This document shows positions 4 to 6,409 of a stretch of DNA of 6,409 nt, in pieces (the first letter of the stretch is position 1; each line of letters opens with the position of its first letter). This stretch comes from a virus, in the UHGV virus genome UHGV-0207123; one strand, given 5' to 3'. The position numbers and the translations under genes are program-made. The notes beneath the pieces are model-generated. The model worked only from the letters and a program-made list of their open reading frames with translations, was not told the DNA's origin and did not search any database.

Positions 4-315
4 ATGGCAAAAAGATTATTTAAAGCACAGCTTAATCCCTGTCAGTGTGTACACAATCCTGAAATTGATCACATTTGTACAAAACCCGGCTTAGCGCTTA
101 CGCCGAGTGATATTAAAGCTCTGACCGATAAAGGCATAGCCGTTTCTTTGCCGAATGCGCAAAATTTCCTTGCACCTCAAGAAGGTGCTAGTTGGAACAT
201 TGAACCGCAATTTAGGCGAGATGCAACTATGTGTTCTGTATGGGAAACTGAAAAGCTTTCACAAAGACGTGTGATGAAGGCTCAAAAGTCTGATATTCAA
301 TTATATGGAGAATAG
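4..315 (+). CDS. Hypothetical 103-aa protein in the F/G-equivalent position between the capsid and pilot genes. It has a Cys/His cluster, C-x-C-x-H-x6-H-x-C, near the N-terminus.
   Basis: ATG at 4, stop TAG at 313-315, and the pilot ATG at 319 follows 3 nt later, so the two are tightly coupled. It is on the same strand as every other gene. If the window is a circular genome, reading the same frame back across the junction hits TAA at 6398-6400, so the ATG at 4 is a consistent start. I recognise no family from the sequence. Confidence 0.45.
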   Translation: MAKRLFKAQLNPCQCVHNPEIDHICTKPGLALTPSDIKALTDKGIAVSLPNAQNFLAPQEGASWNIEPQFRRDATMCSVWETEKLSQRRVMKAQKSDIQLYGE

Positions 316-318
316 CTT

Positions 319-1503
319 ATGGGATTTTTAAGTAAATTAAATCCGAACAGTTGGTTTAGCTCTGCCATTAGTGGCGGAGCTTCCCTTATTGGTAATATTG
401 TTGGTAATAAACAACAGAATGCCAATATTGATAAGCAAATAGCCTTTCAACGTGAAGAAAATGAGAAAGCAAGAGCGTTTAATAAGGCTATGGCAGAACA
501 AGCAAACCAATGGAGTATCGATCAATGGAATAGAGAAAATCAATACAATAGTCCTGAAGCTATGCGCCAACGTCTTCGTGACGCAGGTGTTAATGCTGAT
601 TTATTCTACGGTGGTAATGCTCAAAATACTGCTTCAGCTTCTCCTTCTGTTACTCCCGTTGCTCCTGCTACGCCTACGGACGTTTCCGCTATCGGACAAA
701 AAGCTACAGTTGGAGATATTACCAATAATGTTGTAAGTCAATCTCTTGCAGCCGCACAGATTCGGAAGCTGGAAGCTGATAAAGGTAAGACAAAGCAAGA
801 AACTGAAAATCTTAAGATTGAAGGTAAGATCCTCTCTGCTGATGCTCTTACACGTGCTGCACAAAACGAGCAGGCTTTAGAAATTGGACGCTCAACTATC
901 TATGTAAATCATTCTATTGCAAAACTGAATCAGAAAGAGGCTGAATTAGCCTCTGCCCGTATAACTGAAGCTGCTGCCAATGCTGATTTGTTGTATGAGA
1001 AAGCGAATGAAGTCAAAGCTAATATCAGAAATATCAATGCGAATACTGCAGCTACACGTTTTGGTATGATGATGCGTACAAAAGAGTTTCGCCAACGTGT
1101 GAGAGAGTTTCAGGAACAAGTACGTGTTAATGATTCTTCCATTCGTCTTAGTTATGAGCAAGCCGCTACATATTTGGCTACCCGTTCTGCTACTGTATTA
1201 AATATTAATGCGGATACCACTCTTAAGTCAGCAGGTGTAAAAACTCAATACACTTCCAGGCAAGAGATGCGTGCCCGTACTGAAATGTATGGTAAGCTTG
1301 ACCGTCTTATTAATATACAAGGTGACCAAGCTGCATTTAATCTCGACTCCGATAAAAAGTACAAAGACCTTGAAAGAGGTGTTAGCCTCGTTACAGGTAT
1401 AATAGACTCTGTTTCCGGTGTAATTGGTTCCGCCGGTTCGTTTATTTCCGGTACAGGAATTGGATTACCCAAACCTGTAGGCATTAGAGGTTTACGTAAG
1501 TAA
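319..1503 (+). CDS. Microviridae VP2/H-like DNA pilot (minor capsid) protein, 394 aa
   Basis: The N-terminus is Gly/Ser-rich and hydrophobic (SAISGGASLIGNIVG). The motif MRQRLRDAGVNADLFY at 562-609 matches the conserved R-x-R-x-x-AG-x-N-P/A-x-L-x-Y block I recall in gokushovirus/alpavirus VP2 proteins. The central part is long, Ala/Glu/Lys-rich and predicted helical, coiled-coil-like as in pilot proteins. The C-terminal tail is Gly-rich (GSAGSFISGTGIGLPKP). The gene lies directly upstream of the Rep gene. An SD-like GGAG sits at 307-310, 8 nt before the ATG. Confidence 0.8.
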   Translation: MGFLSKLNPNSWFSSAISGGASLIGNIVGNKQQNANIDKQIAFQREENEKARAFNKAMAEQANQWSIDQWNRENQYNSPEAMRQRLRDAGVNADLFYGGNAQNTASASPSVTPVAPATPTDVSAIGQKATVGDITNNVVSQSLAAAQIRKLEADKGKTKQETENLKIEGKILSADALTRAAQNEQALEIGRSTIYVNHSIAKLNQKEAELASARITEAAANADLLYEKANEVKANIRNINANTAATRFGMMMRTKEFRQRVREFQEQVRVNDSSIRLSYEQAATYLATRSATVLNINADTTLKSAGVKTQYTSRQEMRARTEMYGKLDRLINIQGDQAAFNLDSDKKYKDLERGVSLVTGIIDSVSGVIGSAGSFISGTGIGLPKPVGIRGLRK

Positions 1504-1507
1504 TTCT

Positions 1508-1533
1508 AGGCGTCCCTGTTCGGACGCCTTTTT
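1508..1533 (+). terminator. Rho-independent terminator-like hairpin after the pilot gene
   Basis: AGGCGTCC (1508-1515) pairs perfectly with GGACGCCT (1522-1529) across a 6-nt loop CTGTTC. A T5 run follows at 1529-1533. It begins 5 nt after the VP2 stop codon. Confidence 0.55.
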
Positions 1534-1553
1534 ACGATTTCTTCCAAAATCGT
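1534..1553 (+). repeat. Second stem-loop immediately 3' of the terminator hairpin: ACGATTT, loop CTTCCA, AAATCGT
   Basis: A perfect 7-bp inverted repeat with a 6-nt loop. Together with the 1508-1533 hairpin it makes a tandem-hairpin structure in the pilot-Rep intergenic region. Confidence 0.35.
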
Positions 1554-1557
1554 TCGC

Positions 1558-1585
1558 GAAAACTTGATAATATATAAGCAACTGA
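1558..1585 (+). other. Candidate (+)-strand origin / Rep nick site. ACTTGATA at 1562-1569 is embedded in the AT-rich stretch GAAAACTTGATAATATATAAGCAACTG.
   Basis: The octamer ACTTGATA is identical to the core of the phiX174 gene-A origin, CAACTTG/ATATTAATAAC, and includes the G/A nick position. It sits directly downstream of two stem-loops and about 80-100 nt upstream of the Rep start. From sequence alone this is only a candidate, because an 8-mer can occur by chance at this genome size. Confidence 0.3.
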
Positions 1586-1663
1586 CACACCTTGAGTATC
1601 AACCGTTTACGGTCAGTGCGATTTGATGTAAAGTGCTCCTTCCGTGAGCTGAAAGTAACTCAT

Positions 1664-3052
1664 ATGAATAAAGATATATTTTGCCTTGATCCTGTTATTA
1701 TACAGACTCATACACTTGCTTACAATCTATCTATATACAAACGTTATCATACTCCTAATGGTATGGTATTTATTGATAAAGATGTCGCTGCAACATACCG
1801 TTATTATTTTCCTAAATATAAATACTCTTGTCGTCGTTTAGGTGTAACTATTGACAATGTAGATGAATTCTACATACCTACATTTGATGGTGAGATCATA
1901 TCTATGTTTATGGTTGTTCCCTGTGGTAAATGTAACCTCTGTCGTGATAAGAAAAAACGTGAGTGGTCATTCCGTGCTATTTGTGAGAATGTATATTCTA
2001 CTTCCCAGCCTCTATTCATTACGTGCACATATAATCCTAGCCATTTGCCTAAACATGGTGTATTTAAGGAAGAGTTTCAACTATTCATGAAGCGTCTCCG
2101 CATGAACTTGACTCGCAAAGGTATTGACTCTTCAAACATTCGTTATTTCGCTGTTGGTGAATATGGTCACAAATCTGGTCGTCCTCATTACCATGCTATA
2201 CTATGGTCGTTCCCTTCTGAACATTTTCCAAACATTACCGCTGTATTACATTTTATTGAACGTTGTTGGCGTGTACCCACTGGAGAATATCTTTCTGATG
2301 GCACACCTGTCACCGATTCTCTTGGTTTCTGTCTTGTAAAGCCCTGTGATAAAGGTGTTATTTCCTACGTCATGAAATACATGAGAAAAGAACCTGCTGT
2401 TCCTAAAGGCTGTAACCCTGTATTCTTTCTATCCTCTCGCAAAAATGGAGGTCTCGGTGCTCGTTATGCCCGTGATTATAAGGATTTTTATATGAAACAC
2501 CCTGAGTGCTTGGATGTATCTGTCACAGATCCATTTTCCGGTAAAACTGAAACTGCATTCCTTCCTTCGTATTTTAAACGATTGTATTATCCTAGTAATT
2601 CCGCTGTCTTAGATAAACCTACCCGTGATGCATTTAAGAAGTTTACACTCCTCATCTCTGAACGTATCCAAAATGAACACCAGTTAAATAAGTTGCTCGG
2701 AGAACCCCTTCAGCCAAAGATTTCAAAACTCGAAAAAGAAATCTATAAGAAATTTTGGTTTCTGAAAGTACAAACCTATTGTAAGCCTGAAATACTTAAT
2801 CCTGATTCCCGTTATTATAATCGTATCTACAAACGTAATCTTGCTATTGAACTAGAACTAGACTATTATATCCGTTTCTTATCATTGGTAACTTATGACG
2901 ATTCGTATATTTCCGTCCGTTCTGAACTGCTTGAAAAAAGAGAATTTTCCCTTAAGCGTAGATTTGCTTCAAAAGAACAGCTAAACTTAAATGATGTTAA
3001 TTACAATATAATCCAGAGCATAAAACTTGCATACGCAAAAGAAATACTATAA
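1664..3052 (+). CDS. Rolling-circle replication initiation protein, Microviridae VP4/gpA-like, HUH endonuclease superfamily. It is 462 aa counted from the ATG.
   Basis: RCR motif 1 FITCTY is at 2015-2032. Motif 2 (HUH) is PHYHAIL, with HYH at 2186-2194. Motif 3 is YVMKY, with two Tyr spaced Y-x-x-K-Y, at 2366-2380. An N-terminal C-x2-C-x2-C cluster (PCGKCNLCR, 1922-1942) is a zinc-finger-like element that I recall in gokushovirus-type Reps. The ORF track opens this frame at a TTG (1592). I prefer the first ATG at 1664 (MNKDIFCLD...), and the upstream 72 nt contain a small palindrome. Confidence 0.85.
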   Translation: MNKDIFCLDPVIIQTHTLAYNLSIYKRYHTPNGMVFIDKDVAATYRYYFPKYKYSCRRLGVTIDNVDEFYIPTFDGEIISMFMVVPCGKCNLCRDKKKREWSFRAICENVYSTSQPLFITCTYNPSHLPKHGVFKEEFQLFMKRLRMNLTRKGIDSSNIRYFAVGEYGHKSGRPHYHAILWSFPSEHFPNITAVLHFIERCWRVPTGEYLSDGTPVTDSLGFCLVKPCDKGVISYVMKYMRKEPAVPKGCNPVFFLSSRKNGGLGARYARDYKDFYMKHPECLDVSVTDPFSGKTETAFLPSYFKRLYYPSNSAVLDKPTRDAFKKFTLLISERIQNEHQLNKLLGEPLQPKISKLEKEIYKKFWFLKVQTYCKPEILNPDSRYYNRIYKRNLAIELELDYYIRFLSLVTYDDSYISVRSELLEKREFSLKRRFASKEQLNLNDVNYNIIQSIKLAYAKEIL

Positions 3053-3057
3053 ATTTG
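3024..3057 (+). promoter_or_regulatory. Candidate Bacteroidetes-type promoter for the small-gene cluster, with a -7 element TAAATTTG overlapping the Rep stop codon
   Basis: TAAATTTG at 3050-3057 fits the Bacteroides sigma-AB -7 consensus TAnnTTTG. A weak TTG (3027-3029) lies about 21 nt upstream as a possible -33 element. The next ATG, at 3084, is 27 nt downstream. This is pattern-match only. Confidence 0.2.
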
Positions 3058-3270: not shown

Positions 3271-3462
3271 ATGAAAAAAGAATATGTTGCCTTATATCTT
3301 ACCGTTAGTAGAAGTTATTATGGTATTCACATGTTGACCGCTTCCTCTTTCTCTCGTGCTTATAAGGACGCTAGAGATTATTGTAAAGCTTCTAATTTTG
3401 AACTTGTAGGCGTTGTCGAAAAACAAGCCTTTAAAGATAATTGTCAAATTTTTAATAGTTAA
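3271..3462 (+). CDS. Hypothetical 64-aa protein (MKKEYVALYLTV...)
   Basis: Its ATG at 3271 overlaps the previous stop as TAATATG, an arrangement typical of translational coupling. Stop TAA is at 3460-3462. The track shows a longer 95-aa version from 3175 in the same frame. That version would overlap the previous gene by about 95 nt, so I prefer the internal coupled ATG. No family recognised. Confidence 0.4.
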   Translation: MKKEYVALYLTVSRSYYGIHMLTASSFSRAYKDARDYCKASNFELVGVVEKQAFKDNCQIFNS

Positions 3463-3866: not shown

Positions 3867-6116
3867 ATGGCAAATATTTGGAATGCAACCTTAGAACCCA
3901 ATAATGATGTAAAACAAAATACATTTGATTGGACACATGTTAACAATCTTACTACTCAAATAGGACGTATTACACCTATTCAGTGTGAATTAGTTCCTTC
4001 AAAAACGTCTTTTCGTGCTAAACCTATTCCGGCATTACAGCTTATGCCTATGGTATTCCCTATACAAACACGTATGCGTGCTAGTATTGCTTACTTTCGT
4101 TATCCTCTTCGTGCTCTTTGGAAAGACTATAAGGATTTTATAGGAAATTTCCGTGAAGGACTTGAAGAACCCTATCATGATTTTAATAGTCAGTCAATGC
4201 TCGAGAAGATGCTTGGAACAGGAAAGTTAATGGACTATCTTGGAGTACCTACTACTCTTATAGGTAAATATGGTAATCCTCAATCTGGTTCTCTCCCTGT
4301 TTTTCATAATGCGCAACCTTCTTCGGTTTTCTCCGGCTTAAATGTCCCGCCTTCTGTCGCTTATAATGAAATTCTTAATAATGTCTCTGATGTCAATTCT
4401 TTATATGGTACCGCTCCTGTTGGTTCTAATTCTTGGACTTATTCATTTTATGAATTTGCTGAGTTCACAGAATCAATCGATGTAGTTACTGCAAAATTCA
4501 CCCTTACATATAAGGGAGATGCTTCTCTTGATAGTTTAGCTTCCTCACCTATTTTCACTTTTGTAGCCAGTTCTGGCGTTGCTGGTGTTTTTTACGCTTC
4601 TCAACGAAATAATGTTTCTTACCTTGTTTCAGGCAAACAGATCGAATACACTTTAACGCTTCGGAAAGAGGACTTACTTAGTACTTATGATCTTGCTAAT
4701 ATCACTGGATTAGGCATACTACTCCCTAATTTTTTGAATAATGGAGGTTTCTTTAATTCTGCTAATTCTCCTCTATTTGAGCTTACGCCGATCACTATTA
4801 ACAATGTTTCTGGTGCTGGTACTGTTTCTGATTTAACATTAACTACCTCTCCGTATTATAATAGCAATTCAGCTTCTAAGGATAAACAAATTAAACTTTC
4901 TGCTTATGCCGCTCGTGCATATGAAGGTATTTATAACTCTGTTTATCGTGACAATCGTAATAACCCATATTATATTGATGGTGTTGTTCAGTATAATCAA
5001 TGGATTCCAACTTATGAAGGTGGAGCAGATTCCACTATTTATGAACTTCGTTATGCTAACTGGGAAAAAGATTTCCTTACGACTTCTGTTCAATCGCCGC
5101 AGCAAGGTAACGCACCTCTTGTAGGTATTACTACTTATGATCAGGTTTCTAAAGTTTATGACGAACAAGGCAATCCGACGTTGACTCAGCAGACAAAAGT
5201 AGCTATGGTTGATGAAGATGGAAAACGTTATTCCCTTGAATTTGAATCTGATAAGGACGAGTTAAAAGGTGTCAAATATGTAGAACTCGATAATGGTACA
5301 ACCGTTCGCTCTGCACGTTCGATTTTTGATTTAGTGACTAGTGGTATCTCTATTACTGATTTACGTAATGTAAATGCATATCAGAAGTTCCTAGAACTTA
5401 ACATGCGTAAAGGTTATTCATATAAAGAAATCATTGAAGGTCGCTTTGATGTTAAAGTGCGTTATGCCGATTTGTTATTGCCTGAGTTCTTTGGTGGTTT
5501 CTCTCGTGATATTAATATGAATGCTATTTCACAAACTGTAGATCAAACTGCTACAGGTGAAGGTTCTTATAAAGATGTTCTTGGCTCTCAAGCAGGTATA
5601 GGTTATTTTCATGGAGGTTCTGATGCTAACATTGAGTGTTTCTGTGATGAAGAGAGTATCATTATGGGTCTATTAGTAATTACTCCGTTGCCTGTTTATA
5701 CTCAATTGTTACCGAAACATTTCTTATATCGTGGACTCTTAGATCATTTCTATCCTGAGTTTAATAATATATCATTCCAGCCGATTACCTACAAGGAAGT
5801 ATGTCCAATTCAGGCATATAACGATTCGCCTGACTCATTGACGGAAACCTTTGGTTATCAAAGACCGTGGTATGAATACTGTCAGCGTTATGACCAAGCA
5901 CATGGCTTATTCCGTACTGATTTGTCTAACTTCTTAATGCACCGAGTGTTTGATAAGAAACCGGAGCTTGCTCAGAGCTTCTTAACGGTAGACCCTGATC
6001 AGGTTACAGATGTATTCAGTGTTACAGATGTTACGGATAAAGTCTACGGACAGATTTTAATTGACTGTACCGTGAAGCTTCCTGTCGCTCGTGTCGCAAT
6101 ACCGCGTCTTGACTAA
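3867..6116 (+). CDS. Microviridae major capsid protein VP1/F-like, 749 aa
   Basis: The N-terminal block NTFDWTHVNNLTTQIGRITPIQCELVPSKTSF matches the conserved microvirus MCP start pattern F-D-x-S/T-H, T, G-x-L-P, E-V/L-L/V-P-G/S. The length and the long S/T/N/G-rich low-complexity insertions in the middle third (roughly 4500-5100) are typical of the surface-loop insertions of gokushovirus/alpavirus VP1. It is by far the largest ORF and is flanked by non-coding sequence. Confidence 0.9.
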   Translation: MANIWNATLEPNNDVKQNTFDWTHVNNLTTQIGRITPIQCELVPSKTSFRAKPIPALQLMPMVFPIQTRMRASIAYFRYPLRALWKDYKDFIGNFREGLEEPYHDFNSQSMLEKMLGTGKLMDYLGVPTTLIGKYGNPQSGSLPVFHNAQPSSVFSGLNVPPSVAYNEILNNVSDVNSLYGTAPVGSNSWTYSFYEFAEFTESIDVVTAKFTLTYKGDASLDSLASSPIFTFVASSGVAGVFYASQRNNVSYLVSGKQIEYTLTLRKEDLLSTYDLANITGLGILLPNFLNNGGFFNSANSPLFELTPITINNVSGAGTVSDLTLTTSPYYNSNSASKDKQIKLSAYAARAYEGIYNSVYRDNRNNPYYIDGVVQYNQWIPTYEGGADSTIYELRYANWEKDFLTTSVQSPQQGNAPLVGITTYDQVSKVYDEQGNPTLTQQTKVAMVDEDGKRYSLEFESDKDELKGVKYVELDNGTTVRSARSIFDLVTSGISITDLRNVNAYQKFLELNMRKGYSYKEIIEGRFDVKVRYADLLLPEFFGGFSRDINMNAISQTVDQTATGEGSYKDVLGSQAGIGYFHGGSDANIECFCDEESIIMGLLVITPLPVYTQLLPKHFLYRGLLDHFYPEFNNISFQPITYKEVCPIQAYNDSPDSLTETFGYQRPWYEYCQRYDQAHGLFRTDLSNFLMHRVFDKKPELAQSFLTVDPDQVTDVFSVTDVTDKVYGQILIDCTVKLPVARVAIPRLD

Positions 6117-6134
6117 TTGGTGAAAAAGAGAATA

Positions 6135-6153
6135 TTTTTTTCTTTTTTCTTCC
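6135..6153 (+). other. Pyrimidine (T-rich) tract immediately after the capsid gene stop: TTTTTTTCTTTTTTCTTCC
   Basis: A T7 run at 6135-6141 and a T6 run at 6143-6148 lie 19 nt after the VP1 stop. The preceding A-rich GAAAAAGAGAA (6122-6132) can pair weakly with it. It may be a weak intrinsic terminator for the capsid transcript. Confidence 0.25.
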
Positions 6154-6217
6154 GACACTGCCTCATCAAGCAGAACGAGCGATATGACCAAGGGTTCTTG
6201 TAGTAAAAATTGTTAAA

Positions 6218-6243
6218 TGCGTGCGCGCGCTTGCGTGTGCGCG
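6218..6243. repeat. 26-nt all-G/C/T alternating purine-pyrimidine tract TGCGTGCGCGCGCTTGCGTGTGCGCG, which is two imperfect direct copies of a TGCGTGCGCGCG-type unit
   Basis: The pyrimidine/purine alternation is perfect for 13 nt, then a TT break, then 11 more nt. It is GC-only in an otherwise AT-rich non-coding region. Related GCGTG-type motifs occur at 6218-6225, 6231-6238 and 6372-6380. It has Z-DNA-prone composition and is a possible protein-binding or iteron element. Confidence 0.5.
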
Positions 6244-6295
6244 TATTTAATCATTTTTAGTGCAAGGTTCATTGGACATTTCGAGCGTTCTACCT

Positions 6296-6303
6296 TATCT
6301 TTG
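6296..6303 (+). promoter_or_regulatory. Candidate Bacteroidetes -7 promoter element TATCTTTG in the large non-coding region
   Basis: It matches TAnnTTTG. If the genome is circular, it could drive the 103-aa ORF/pilot operon that starts about 120 nt downstream across the junction. I could not identify a clear -33 TTTG. Confidence 0.15.
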
Positions 6304-6312
6304 CAGTTTCGT

Positions 6313-6333
6313 AAGATTAAAGATTAAAAGATT
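6313..6333. repeat. Tandem heptamer repeat AAGATTA x about 3 (AAGATTA AAGATTA AAAGATT)
   Basis: The direct repeats are visible at 6313-6319, 6320-6326 and 6327-6333. This is an iteron-like arrangement lying between the promoter-like element and the GC hairpin. Confidence 0.4.
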
Positions 6334-6339
6334 CTCTCC

Positions 6340-6353
6340 CCGGCGTATGCCGG
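6340..6353. repeat. Short GC hairpin: CCGGC, loop GTAT, GCCGG
   Basis: A perfect 5-bp GC stem with a 4-nt loop is followed by the A-rich run ACAAAAATAGCAAC. It stands out against the AT-rich background. Confidence 0.3.
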
Positions 6354-6409
6354 ACAAAAATAGCAACTCTGTTGCGTGCGTTTAAAAAATAAACAATTAA
6401 AAACGAAAG

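Follow-up and report, generated by a model that had tools for sequence, protein, structure and literature searches.

According to a mutagenesis study (bioRxiv 10.64898/2026.07.25.740675), the 30-nucleotide (nt) origin of phiX174 (Bullavirinae) is cut and rejoined at the bond between G4305 and A4306 by protein A, which uses Tyr343 and Tyr347 for this. The phiX174 record reads CAACTTGATATTAATAACACTATAGACCAC at positions 4299-4328, with the origin annotated at A4306. Phages of the Ff group (M13/f1) have one non-coding region following the terminator hairpin of the structural genes, in which hairpins and the nick site lie beside the initiator gene, and the roles of these hairpins as packaging signal, (-) origin and (+) origin have been established by experiment. 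CRESS-DNA viruses and pT181-type plasmids carry the nick site in the hairpin loop of the origin, and for the HUH relaxases TrwC and TraI an inverted repeat lies 5' of nic in oriT. Few DNA phages of the human gut are as common as the Alpavirinae and their related microviruses, almost none of which have been cultured. Here we describe the spacer between the pilot and Rep genes (positions 1504-1663) of UHGV virus genome UHGV-0207123, a 6409-base sequence (the window) that is the complete genome of an Alpavirinae-type microvirus. A preliminary description of this DNA had proposed the spacer as a candidate replication origin and had supposed that no origin was defined experimentally for this group; no description of one was found in the searchable literature, which was partly covered, and no annotation of one was found in GenBank phage records. 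Literature searches with the sequence itself returned only unrelated primer lists.

The segment from approximately 1561 to 1590 is very probably a viral-strand (+) rolling-circle origin of the phiX174 type. With rather less confidence, and by analogy with phiX174, the bond G1566/A1567 is predicted to be the one that Rep cuts. The 9-mer AACTTGATA in the window is identical to phiX174 positions 4300-4308 and thus shares 9 of the 10 bases of CAACTTG/ATA, the first C being replaced by A; AACTTGATAT is found in many relatives. The preliminary description had placed the octamer ACTTGATA at 1562-1569 and equated it with the core of the phiX174 origin, and both statements were borne out. The octamer is expected 0.38 times per genome on both strands and occurred at least once in 63 of 200 shuffles, so that by itself within one genome it is not significant. 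The fold of 1504-1663 was modestly better than that of shuffled sequences (z = -1.99), and that of 1495-1560 gave z = -3.0. The case rests on comparison with relatives, and the features of the spacer are judged to be real because of their conservation and covariation there.

A two-part signal between the pilot and Rep genes

Relatives were gathered by Rep similarity and not by the motif, and comprised 74 loci from viral contigs, 4 from bacterial genomes and 8 further genomes with 38-59% Rep identity; loci are cited below by L numbers. A tblastn analysis showed that the order pilot then Rep is common to all of them. Their shared signal consists of T-AACTYGATW, about 6 positions that are almost only A or T, seven positions (N7) that covary with a downstream arm, and TGACAC. 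Approximately 79 loci had the interval present, and 69 of these contained the 9-mer with at most 2 mismatches followed by TGACAY; L005, with a longer A/T spacer, and L018, with the box CTAACAC, bring the total to about 71 of the 79. The signal persists down to 31% Rep identity, and the spacing between motif and box was identical in 53 of 54 distinct sequences. In 53 distinct sequences, positions A2, C3, T4, G6, A7 and T8 of AACTTGATA were invariant and the other three rarely varied, position 5 being detailed below; motif positions 10-15 were almost only A or T, and T23, G24, A25, C26 and A27 of the signal were invariant. An alignment of 27 distinct spacers placed the invariant columns in clusters at ACTnGAT (1563-1568), AG (1577-1578), TGACA (1583-1587) and CG (1619-1620). 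The octamer ACTTGATA was thus conserved in the relatives, including lineages at 31-38% Rep identity, and general loss of it from an otherwise retained spacer, which the preliminary description had named as evidence against an origin, was not found. The exceptions to the signal are L014, two odd loci (L063 and L069) and five very distant Reps.

Position and strand are kept as well. The signal occurs once, always on the coding (+) strand and between the pilot and Rep genes, and motif and Rep were on the same strand in all 58 contigs holding both, so the proposal that the spacer is a candidate origin is supported by conservation, strand and position alike. The form of the motif is unchanged whether the Rep start lies 90 or 560 nt away. 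In the group L041-L067 (31-38% Rep identity) the same 28-mer is found 470-566 nt upstream of the Rep ATG, followed by a hairpin on the box, the linker GATTTGAATG and a covarying hairpin, and in L047 and L056 at least, a Bacteroides-type promoter box (TAtcTTTG) stands between this module and Rep. The signal is thus independent of Rep expression, and the module is an autonomous cis element, more than a Rep leader.

The likeness to phiX174 extends beyond the 9 bases shared on the viral strand with CAACTTG/ATATTAATAACACTATAGACCAC, the origin used by the gene A protein. An A/T-rich run follows straight after the 9-mer (TTAATAA in phiX174, ATATATAA in the window), and GAC is equally spaced, at positions 24-26 when counting from the first A of the 9-mer and 25-27 of the 30-nt phiX174 origin. 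The total length is about 30 nt in both. Both initiators have an HUH motif and two tyrosines four residues apart (HFH 263-265 and FYVAKYVNK, with Y343 and Y347, in protein A), and in both genomes the neighbouring genes are pilot (H) and then Rep (A). The two systems differ in that the origin in the window is intergenic whereas that of phiX174 lies inside the Rep coding sequence, in the first base (A or T in this group, C in phiX174), in the distal box (TGACAC against CTATAGACCAC), and in the host (Bacteroides against an enterobacterium). In the window the box also pairs downstream, forming stem P1, and after it comes a ~70-nt structured module (P1-P3; Table 1). The Reps align around the HUH motif only, this being the sole region covered by a profile alignment with protein A. 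Homology over the full 30-mer was tried and rejected, as just the first 10 bases and GAC hold; in the distal part TGACA(C) is invariant at fixed spacing with GAC at the phiX174 positions, while identity over positions 11-30 falls within the range of shuffles. Homology with phiX174 can be claimed for the recognition sequence and the overall layout, and for nothing beyond them. The origin proposed here is new within phiX174-type origins, from which it differs by its intergenic place and its attached structured module. In phiX174 itself (L089), a CCCC-GAA-GGGG hairpin at 4329-4345 directly follows the 30-nt origin, much as a hairpin comes after the box in the other microviruses; this resemblance may be a coincidence.

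A pattern scan of IMG/VR for AACTTGAT-N10-13-ACTGACAC recovered the Alpavirinae together with microviruses of 4.2-5.2 kb; some 55 further long contigs, which had no microvirus Rep, were set aside as chance matches in coding DNA. The small microviruses concerned are L097, L099, L100, L120, L137, L158, L161, L163, L173, L176, L179, L196 and L206-L285, and the Rep of L097 is 97% identical to that of Parabacteroides phage YZ-2015a. In the small genomes that carry it the motif sits in a hairpin loop on at least 17 different stems of 6-12 bp, with ACTGACAC(C) immediately after each. The arrangement can be written as YTTGAT in a covarying loop followed by (A/T)nTGACAC(C), with variant loops CTAGAT, CTTGTT and CTTGAC, and the box is often paired with a downstream GTGTCAG. 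Presentation of the motif in a loop, as in CRESS-DNA viruses and pT181-type plasmids, is the textbook rolling-circle layout, and it therefore lends independent support to the same sequence in the window, although the window motif is not itself presented in a loop and both the nick sequence and the Rep subfamily differ from those systems. In a Rep-ascertained sample of 80 small microviruses, a relaxed form of the signal was found on the + strand in 27 and on the - strand in 2. The TGACAC box persists further out among the microviruses than the nick motif does. The copy in SpV4 is uninformative, as that genome is A/T-rich.

We infer Rep cleavage in the spacer, as well as the exact bond and the roles of the box, of P1-P3 and of hairpin 2. 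In the proposed mechanism, the TGACAC box (1583-1588) is the presumed site at which Rep binds the double-stranded replicative form, and the A/T-rich spacer at 1570-1577 would melt. Either Y235 or Y239 would cut the + strand in AACTTG/ATA at G1566/A1567 and become covalently joined to the 5' end, and the free 3'-OH would prime the host polymerase. One round later, the second tyrosine would cut the regenerated site and the first would reseal the displaced strand as a circle, which would then be packaged.

Several observations weigh against this interpretation. The position of the nick is taken from phiX174 by analogy, and position 5 of the 9-mer is variable (T in 48, C in 4 and A in 1 of the 53 distinct sequences). 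The match to phiX174 past the first 10 bases is not significant, shuffles of positions 11-30 reaching its score in 3-75% of cases, and because of this the equation of the TGACAC box with the phiX174 binding sequence is only a guess. Conservation in the 27-spacer alignment spans the entire spacer and not the octamer alone, so that the nick site is not singled out by conservation by itself. The signal is absent from about two thirds of the sampled small microviruses and is not universal in the family, and the motif was not found in the classical gokushoviruses Chp2 and phiMH2K. In L014 (IMGVR_UViG_3300045988_026761, ~3390-3400), which reads TATAA-ATATATAGAGCAACTGACAC, the six bases CTTGAT are deleted and the remaining spacer is kept, which could reflect a decaying prophage whose origin is dead, or else a fault of the assembly. 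Finally, P1-P3 could equally well act in RNA.

A broader possibility, which we put forward tentatively and regard as somewhat doubtful, is that YTTGAT, about 14 nt and CTGACAC, with the box in a hairpin arm, represent the (+) origin ancestral to much of the Microviridae. It would have been retained in phiX174-like phages, in the Alpavirinae and in the small Parabacteroides and environmental microviruses, although their Reps have diverged too far for ordinary sequence comparison to recognise. The lineages would then differ only in how the site is exposed, by a hairpin loop or by a melting A/T region, the pairing of the box would have switched from an upstream to a downstream arm, and P1-P3 would serve both as a Rep loading structure in DNA and as a translational brake on Rep in RNA. 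A 9-nt cleavage sequence that has outlived nearly all the similarity that can be recognised between the initiator proteins bears on how HUH specificity evolves. A defined origin also offers a natural zero coordinate for the circular genomes of Alpavirinae-type microviruses, a direct biochemical test with Rep and a 40-nt oligonucleotide, a cis element for Rep-dependent replicons or synthetic-genome rescue in Bacteroides, and a means of correcting over-long Rep annotations that run across the spacer.

Other functions considered for the spacer

It is conceivable, but quite improbable, that the spacer works only in gene expression, as a Rep promoter or operator or as a 5' leader RNA comprising P1-P3, with the match to phiX174 being coincidental. 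Covarying stems suit RNA as well as single-stranded DNA, and P3 touches or overlaps the Rep ATG in L010 and L084. The Bacteroides sigma-AB box (-33 TTTG / -7 TAnnTTTG, with TTTG ~19-21 nt upstream) was also searched for, and no TAnnTTTG occurs in 1504-1663. The only intergenic matches in the window are TATCTTTG at 6296-6303, which is in the 3' arm of the long post-capsid hairpin and upstream of orf1 and the pilot gene, and TAAATTTG at 3050-3057, which overlaps the Rep stop and is upstream of the small open reading frames (ORFs) and the capsid gene. As there is no such box for Rep, its expression may depend on read-through of hairpin 1, which would put the structure in the Rep mRNA. A function confined to expression, however, does not account for the distant group, where the module lies ~500 nt from Rep and, in L047 and L056 at least, upstream of a separate promoter-like box, nor for the small microviruses, which keep the motif in a hairpin loop wherever Rep lies. 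For any one 9-mer conserved across the family, a coincidental match to the phiX174 cleavage sequence has a chance of ~4^-9. The motif carries neither a sigma-70 nor a Bacteroides promoter consensus, and a promoter on TTGATA was rejected in the absence of a correctly spaced consensus and with a distance across P1 that varies by 20 nt among relatives. Rfam 15 gave no match at gathering score, only two sub-threshold chance matches, both outside 1504-1663. A regulatory role of P1-P3 may be additional to the origin.

Another explanation is that the spacer is a complementary-strand (-) origin or a packaging signal, at whose hairpins host primase or RNA polymerase would act while Rep nicks elsewhere. 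Such a single-strand origin adjoins the nick site in rolling-circle plasmids and in the Ff phages. The spacer does have several covarying + strand hairpins, and the loop of hairpin 2 is conserved in the manner of single-strand origins, but conservation is highest at AACTnGAT and TGACA, which are not just parts of stems. A better candidate is offered by the post-capsid long hairpin with its conserved (CG/TG)n tip, found in nearly all relatives examined, and no other site in the genome that resembles a nick site is conserved across lineages. We therefore consider this explanation highly improbable for the spacer as a whole; it may apply to hairpin 2 or to P1-P3 alone.

With respect to the Ff phages, the window is similar in that the spacer after a terminator hairpin gathers hairpins and a predicted + strand nick site adjoining the initiator gene. 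It differs in initiator family and nick sequence, in having its candidate (-) origin in another non-coding region, and in that the hairpin roles, established by experiment in Ff, are putative in the window.

In some relatives GATAATGTAT resembles the inner part of E. coli dif, and hairpin 2 is a 7-6-7 inverted repeat. That the spacer is a dif-like XerC/D attachment (att) site for lysogeny is nonetheless a negligible prospect: the published layout of Bacteroidetes microvirus proviruses (attL-Rep-capsid-pilot-attR, with a dif-like att site at either end; Krupovic and Forterre 2011, PMC3091885) would place att between pilot and Rep, but the Bacteroides sp. f07 prophage (L077) has an intact pilot-spacer-Rep junction, the same host sequence comes after Rep in L010 and L078, and the arms of the motif are not palindromic. 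These prophage junctions exclude both hairpin 2 and the motif as attachment or dif sites for this lineage. The L077 prophage has 15-nt direct repeats ATAATGATTATTCCC at 3942 and 10410, 6468 nt apart, the right-hand one 33 nt past the Rep stop, where the window has 31 nt, and in many IMG/VR contigs the last bases are those of the Rep stop. The repeats, the host junctions of L010 and L078 and the contig ends together indicate that the attachment site of that lineage is downstream of Rep.

Hairpins and the structured module of the spacer

The features of the window are listed in Table 1. The preliminary description had reported two perfect, back-to-back stem-loops after the pilot gene as parts of the origin; both are present, and their roles appear to differ, hairpin 1 being assigned to the pilot operon as its terminator and not to the origin, and hairpin 2 remaining as a conserved accessory.

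Table 1. Coordinates of genes and spacer features in the 6409-base window.
Feature	Position	Strand	Remarks
orf1	4-315		ORF list
Pilot (VP2/H-like) gene	319..1503	+	ORF list; stop codon 1501-1503 opens the spacer
Hairpin 1	1508..1533	+	AGGCGTCC 1508-1515 / GGACGCCT 1522-1529; 8 bp, 6-nt loop, T run 1529-1533
Hairpin 2	1534..1553	+	ACGATTT 1534-1540 / AAATCGT 1547-1553; 7 bp, loop CTTCCA (6 nt)
AACTTGATA, predicted Rep recognition/cleavage sequence	1561..1569	+	Conservation, phiX174 identity
Octamer ACTTGATA	1562-1569	+	Sole copy in window
A/T-rich spacer ATATATAA	1570..1577	+	Sequence variable, composition kept
GCAACTGACACAC box	1578..1590	+	TGACA 1583-1587 invariant, C1588 varies once
Stem P1	1578-1584 with 1614-1619	+	A1580 bulged; 5' arm GCAACTG in box region
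Inner hairpins within P1	TTGA 1592-1595 / TCAA 1599-1602; ACCG 1602-1605 / CGGT 1610-1613	+	
Unpaired linker GATTTGATGTAAAGT	1620..1634	+	GCGAATTGCYCTAAGT in most relatives; GATTTGAATG in distant group
Hairpin P3	1635..1649	+	GCTC 1635-1638 / GAGC 1646-1649, loop CTTCCGT
Rep (VP4)	1664..3052	+	462 amino acids; HUH rolling-circle initiator, two active-site tyrosines
Four small ORFs	Between Rep and capsid F		
Capsid F	3867-6116		
Post-capsid non-coding region	6117-6409		293 nt

Hairpin 1 starts 5 nt past the pilot stop and has 6 G-C pairs among its 8. Compensatory changes were seen at all 8 pairs in 27 relatives, so that the sequence varies and the structure is kept; RNAalifold recovered the stem independently, and a T run of 4-6 is retained in most relatives. 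Because of its G+C-rich covarying stem, its T run and its position right after the stop codon, hairpin 1 most likely serves the orf1-pilot transcription unit as its intrinsic terminator, separate from the origin, and most simply that unit would start at the promoter-like box at 6296. A simple consensus terminator scan did not list hairpin 1, probably because the pairs at the foot of the stem use 1-2 of the T residues.

In hairpin 2 both the stem and the loop sequence are conserved, and 21-27 of the 27 relatives retain each of the outer pairs ACGA/TCGT. One lineage has an AGGCAT/ATGCCT stem and another has ACGAAG-[inner hairpin]-CTTCGT. Such rare stem swaps, the inserted inner hairpin and the downstream position of a similar TACGAAG...CTTCG hairpin in the distant group argue that hairpin 2 is a separable module; it may be an auxiliary site for Rep or a host factor, or a priming site for the complementary strand. 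From its end it is 7 nt to the 9-mer and 13 nt to the predicted nick, an arrangement reminiscent of the inverted repeat 5' of nic in the oriT of TrwC and TraI; unlike in oriT, the distant group has another hairpin at this place and a hairpin 2-like element downstream. In L041-L067 this element, a TACGAAGTT-TCC-AACTTCG hairpin, is found downstream of the core at a distance of ~95-125 nt (in L041, for instance, at 1450-1480), and a different hairpin with the conserved loop GYGAARCAT directly precedes the core. The modules of this group appear reshuffled relative to the window.

The preliminary description had also pictured the nick site as presented by a hairpin, and this part did not stand. In the window the motif sits between hairpin 2 and the downstream stem and in no loop, AACTTGATA and the A/T spacer being unpaired, since the longest stems able to enclose the motif in the 6-8 kb relatives have only 3-6 bp. 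In an Alpavirinae sub-lineage (L027-L033, L184 and L199; for example L027 ~455-500), an upstream GTTGCT can pair with AGCAAC of the box, which puts the nick motif in a 20-nt loop, and the same AGCAAC also makes P1 with a downstream CAGTTGC. These alternative pairings may be a switch between two conformations.

As for the origin signal as a whole, the octamer half of the earlier proposal was upheld and its second half, TGACA(C) at 1583-1588 in the region of the P1 5' arm, had been missed. P1 showed compensatory changes at 4 of 7 pairs, with 90% of cells paired, and formed in 26 of 27 relatives folded individually. The palindrome ACCG-TTTA-CGGT noted earlier at 1602-1613 is present and is enclosed by P1, and the inner hairpins covary, ACCG/CGGT changing to CCTA/TAGG in L081 and TTGA/TCAA to CTGA/TCAG. 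The linker is conserved, and in and beside it C1619, G1620, T1623 and A1631 are invariant. All 5 pairs of P3 covary, and the distant group has an equivalent covarying hairpin after the linker. RNAalifold on the MAFFT alignment gave only hairpin 1 and P3; P1 required an explicit pair count and per-sequence folding. The covariation of the whole structure was reached in none of 500 shuffles, and when the 3' partners were slid by 1-3 columns 37-48% of cells were paired, against 84% for the actual structure. P1-P3 belong to the same conserved module as the signal and may be an extended docking or enhancer structure for Rep in the displaced single strand.

TTGA-type motifs (CTTGATA, CTTGAGTA and ATTTGATG) recur about every 30 nt in the window, at 1564-1569, at 1592-1595 with 1597-1602, and at 1622-1627. 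TTGATA at 1564-1569 is exactly complementary to TATCAA at 1597-1602. These recurring motifs could be iterons, alternative pairings or chance.

Rep, the post-capsid hairpin and the genome

The Rep protein matched the Pfam family REP_ORF2-G2P with E = 4e-18 and Phage_GPA weakly (E = 0.0065). The HUH and YxxKY motifs ascribed to it earlier are located at residues 175-177 (HYH) and 235-239 (YVMKY), and H175-Y-H177 and Y235-V-M-K-Y239, within SYVMKYMRK, are invariant across 40 homologues. The ATG at 1664, 95 nt downstream of the octamer and so close to the ~100 nt given previously, is supported as the start because most homologues are ~460 amino acids long. A coding reading of the spacer, as a TTG-started ORF from 1592 in frame with Rep, is unlikely and was rejected, as homologues begin at the ATG, alignment indels are not multiples of 3, and the stems covary. 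In GenBank records PQ006824, PQ007374 and PQ007396 (bajarodmic viruses), the spacer homologue is annotated inside 'replication initiator protein', and these Rep coding sequences are probably over-extended upstream across the origin module.

The post-capsid region 6117-6409 folds as a very long imperfect hairpin with a core at 6127-6337 and a tip at 6218-6241. Complementarity is 71% between its arms 6165-6230 / 6233-6298 and 80% between the outer arms 6127-6161 / 6303-6337, with a DNA fold of -60.6 kcal/mol (z = -7). The tip is an alternating purine/pyrimidine G+C hairpin, GCGTGCGCGCGC-TT-GCGTGTGCGCG, with G-T wobbles. A (CG/TG)n hairpin of the same kind is found in almost every relative examined, the long extension only in the window, L004, L018 and L077. 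This hairpin is a candidate complementary-strand origin or single-strand promoter.

The closest GenBank record to the window is a rat gut microvirus with 78% nucleotide identity, and Bacteroides chromosomes also hold Rep homologues.

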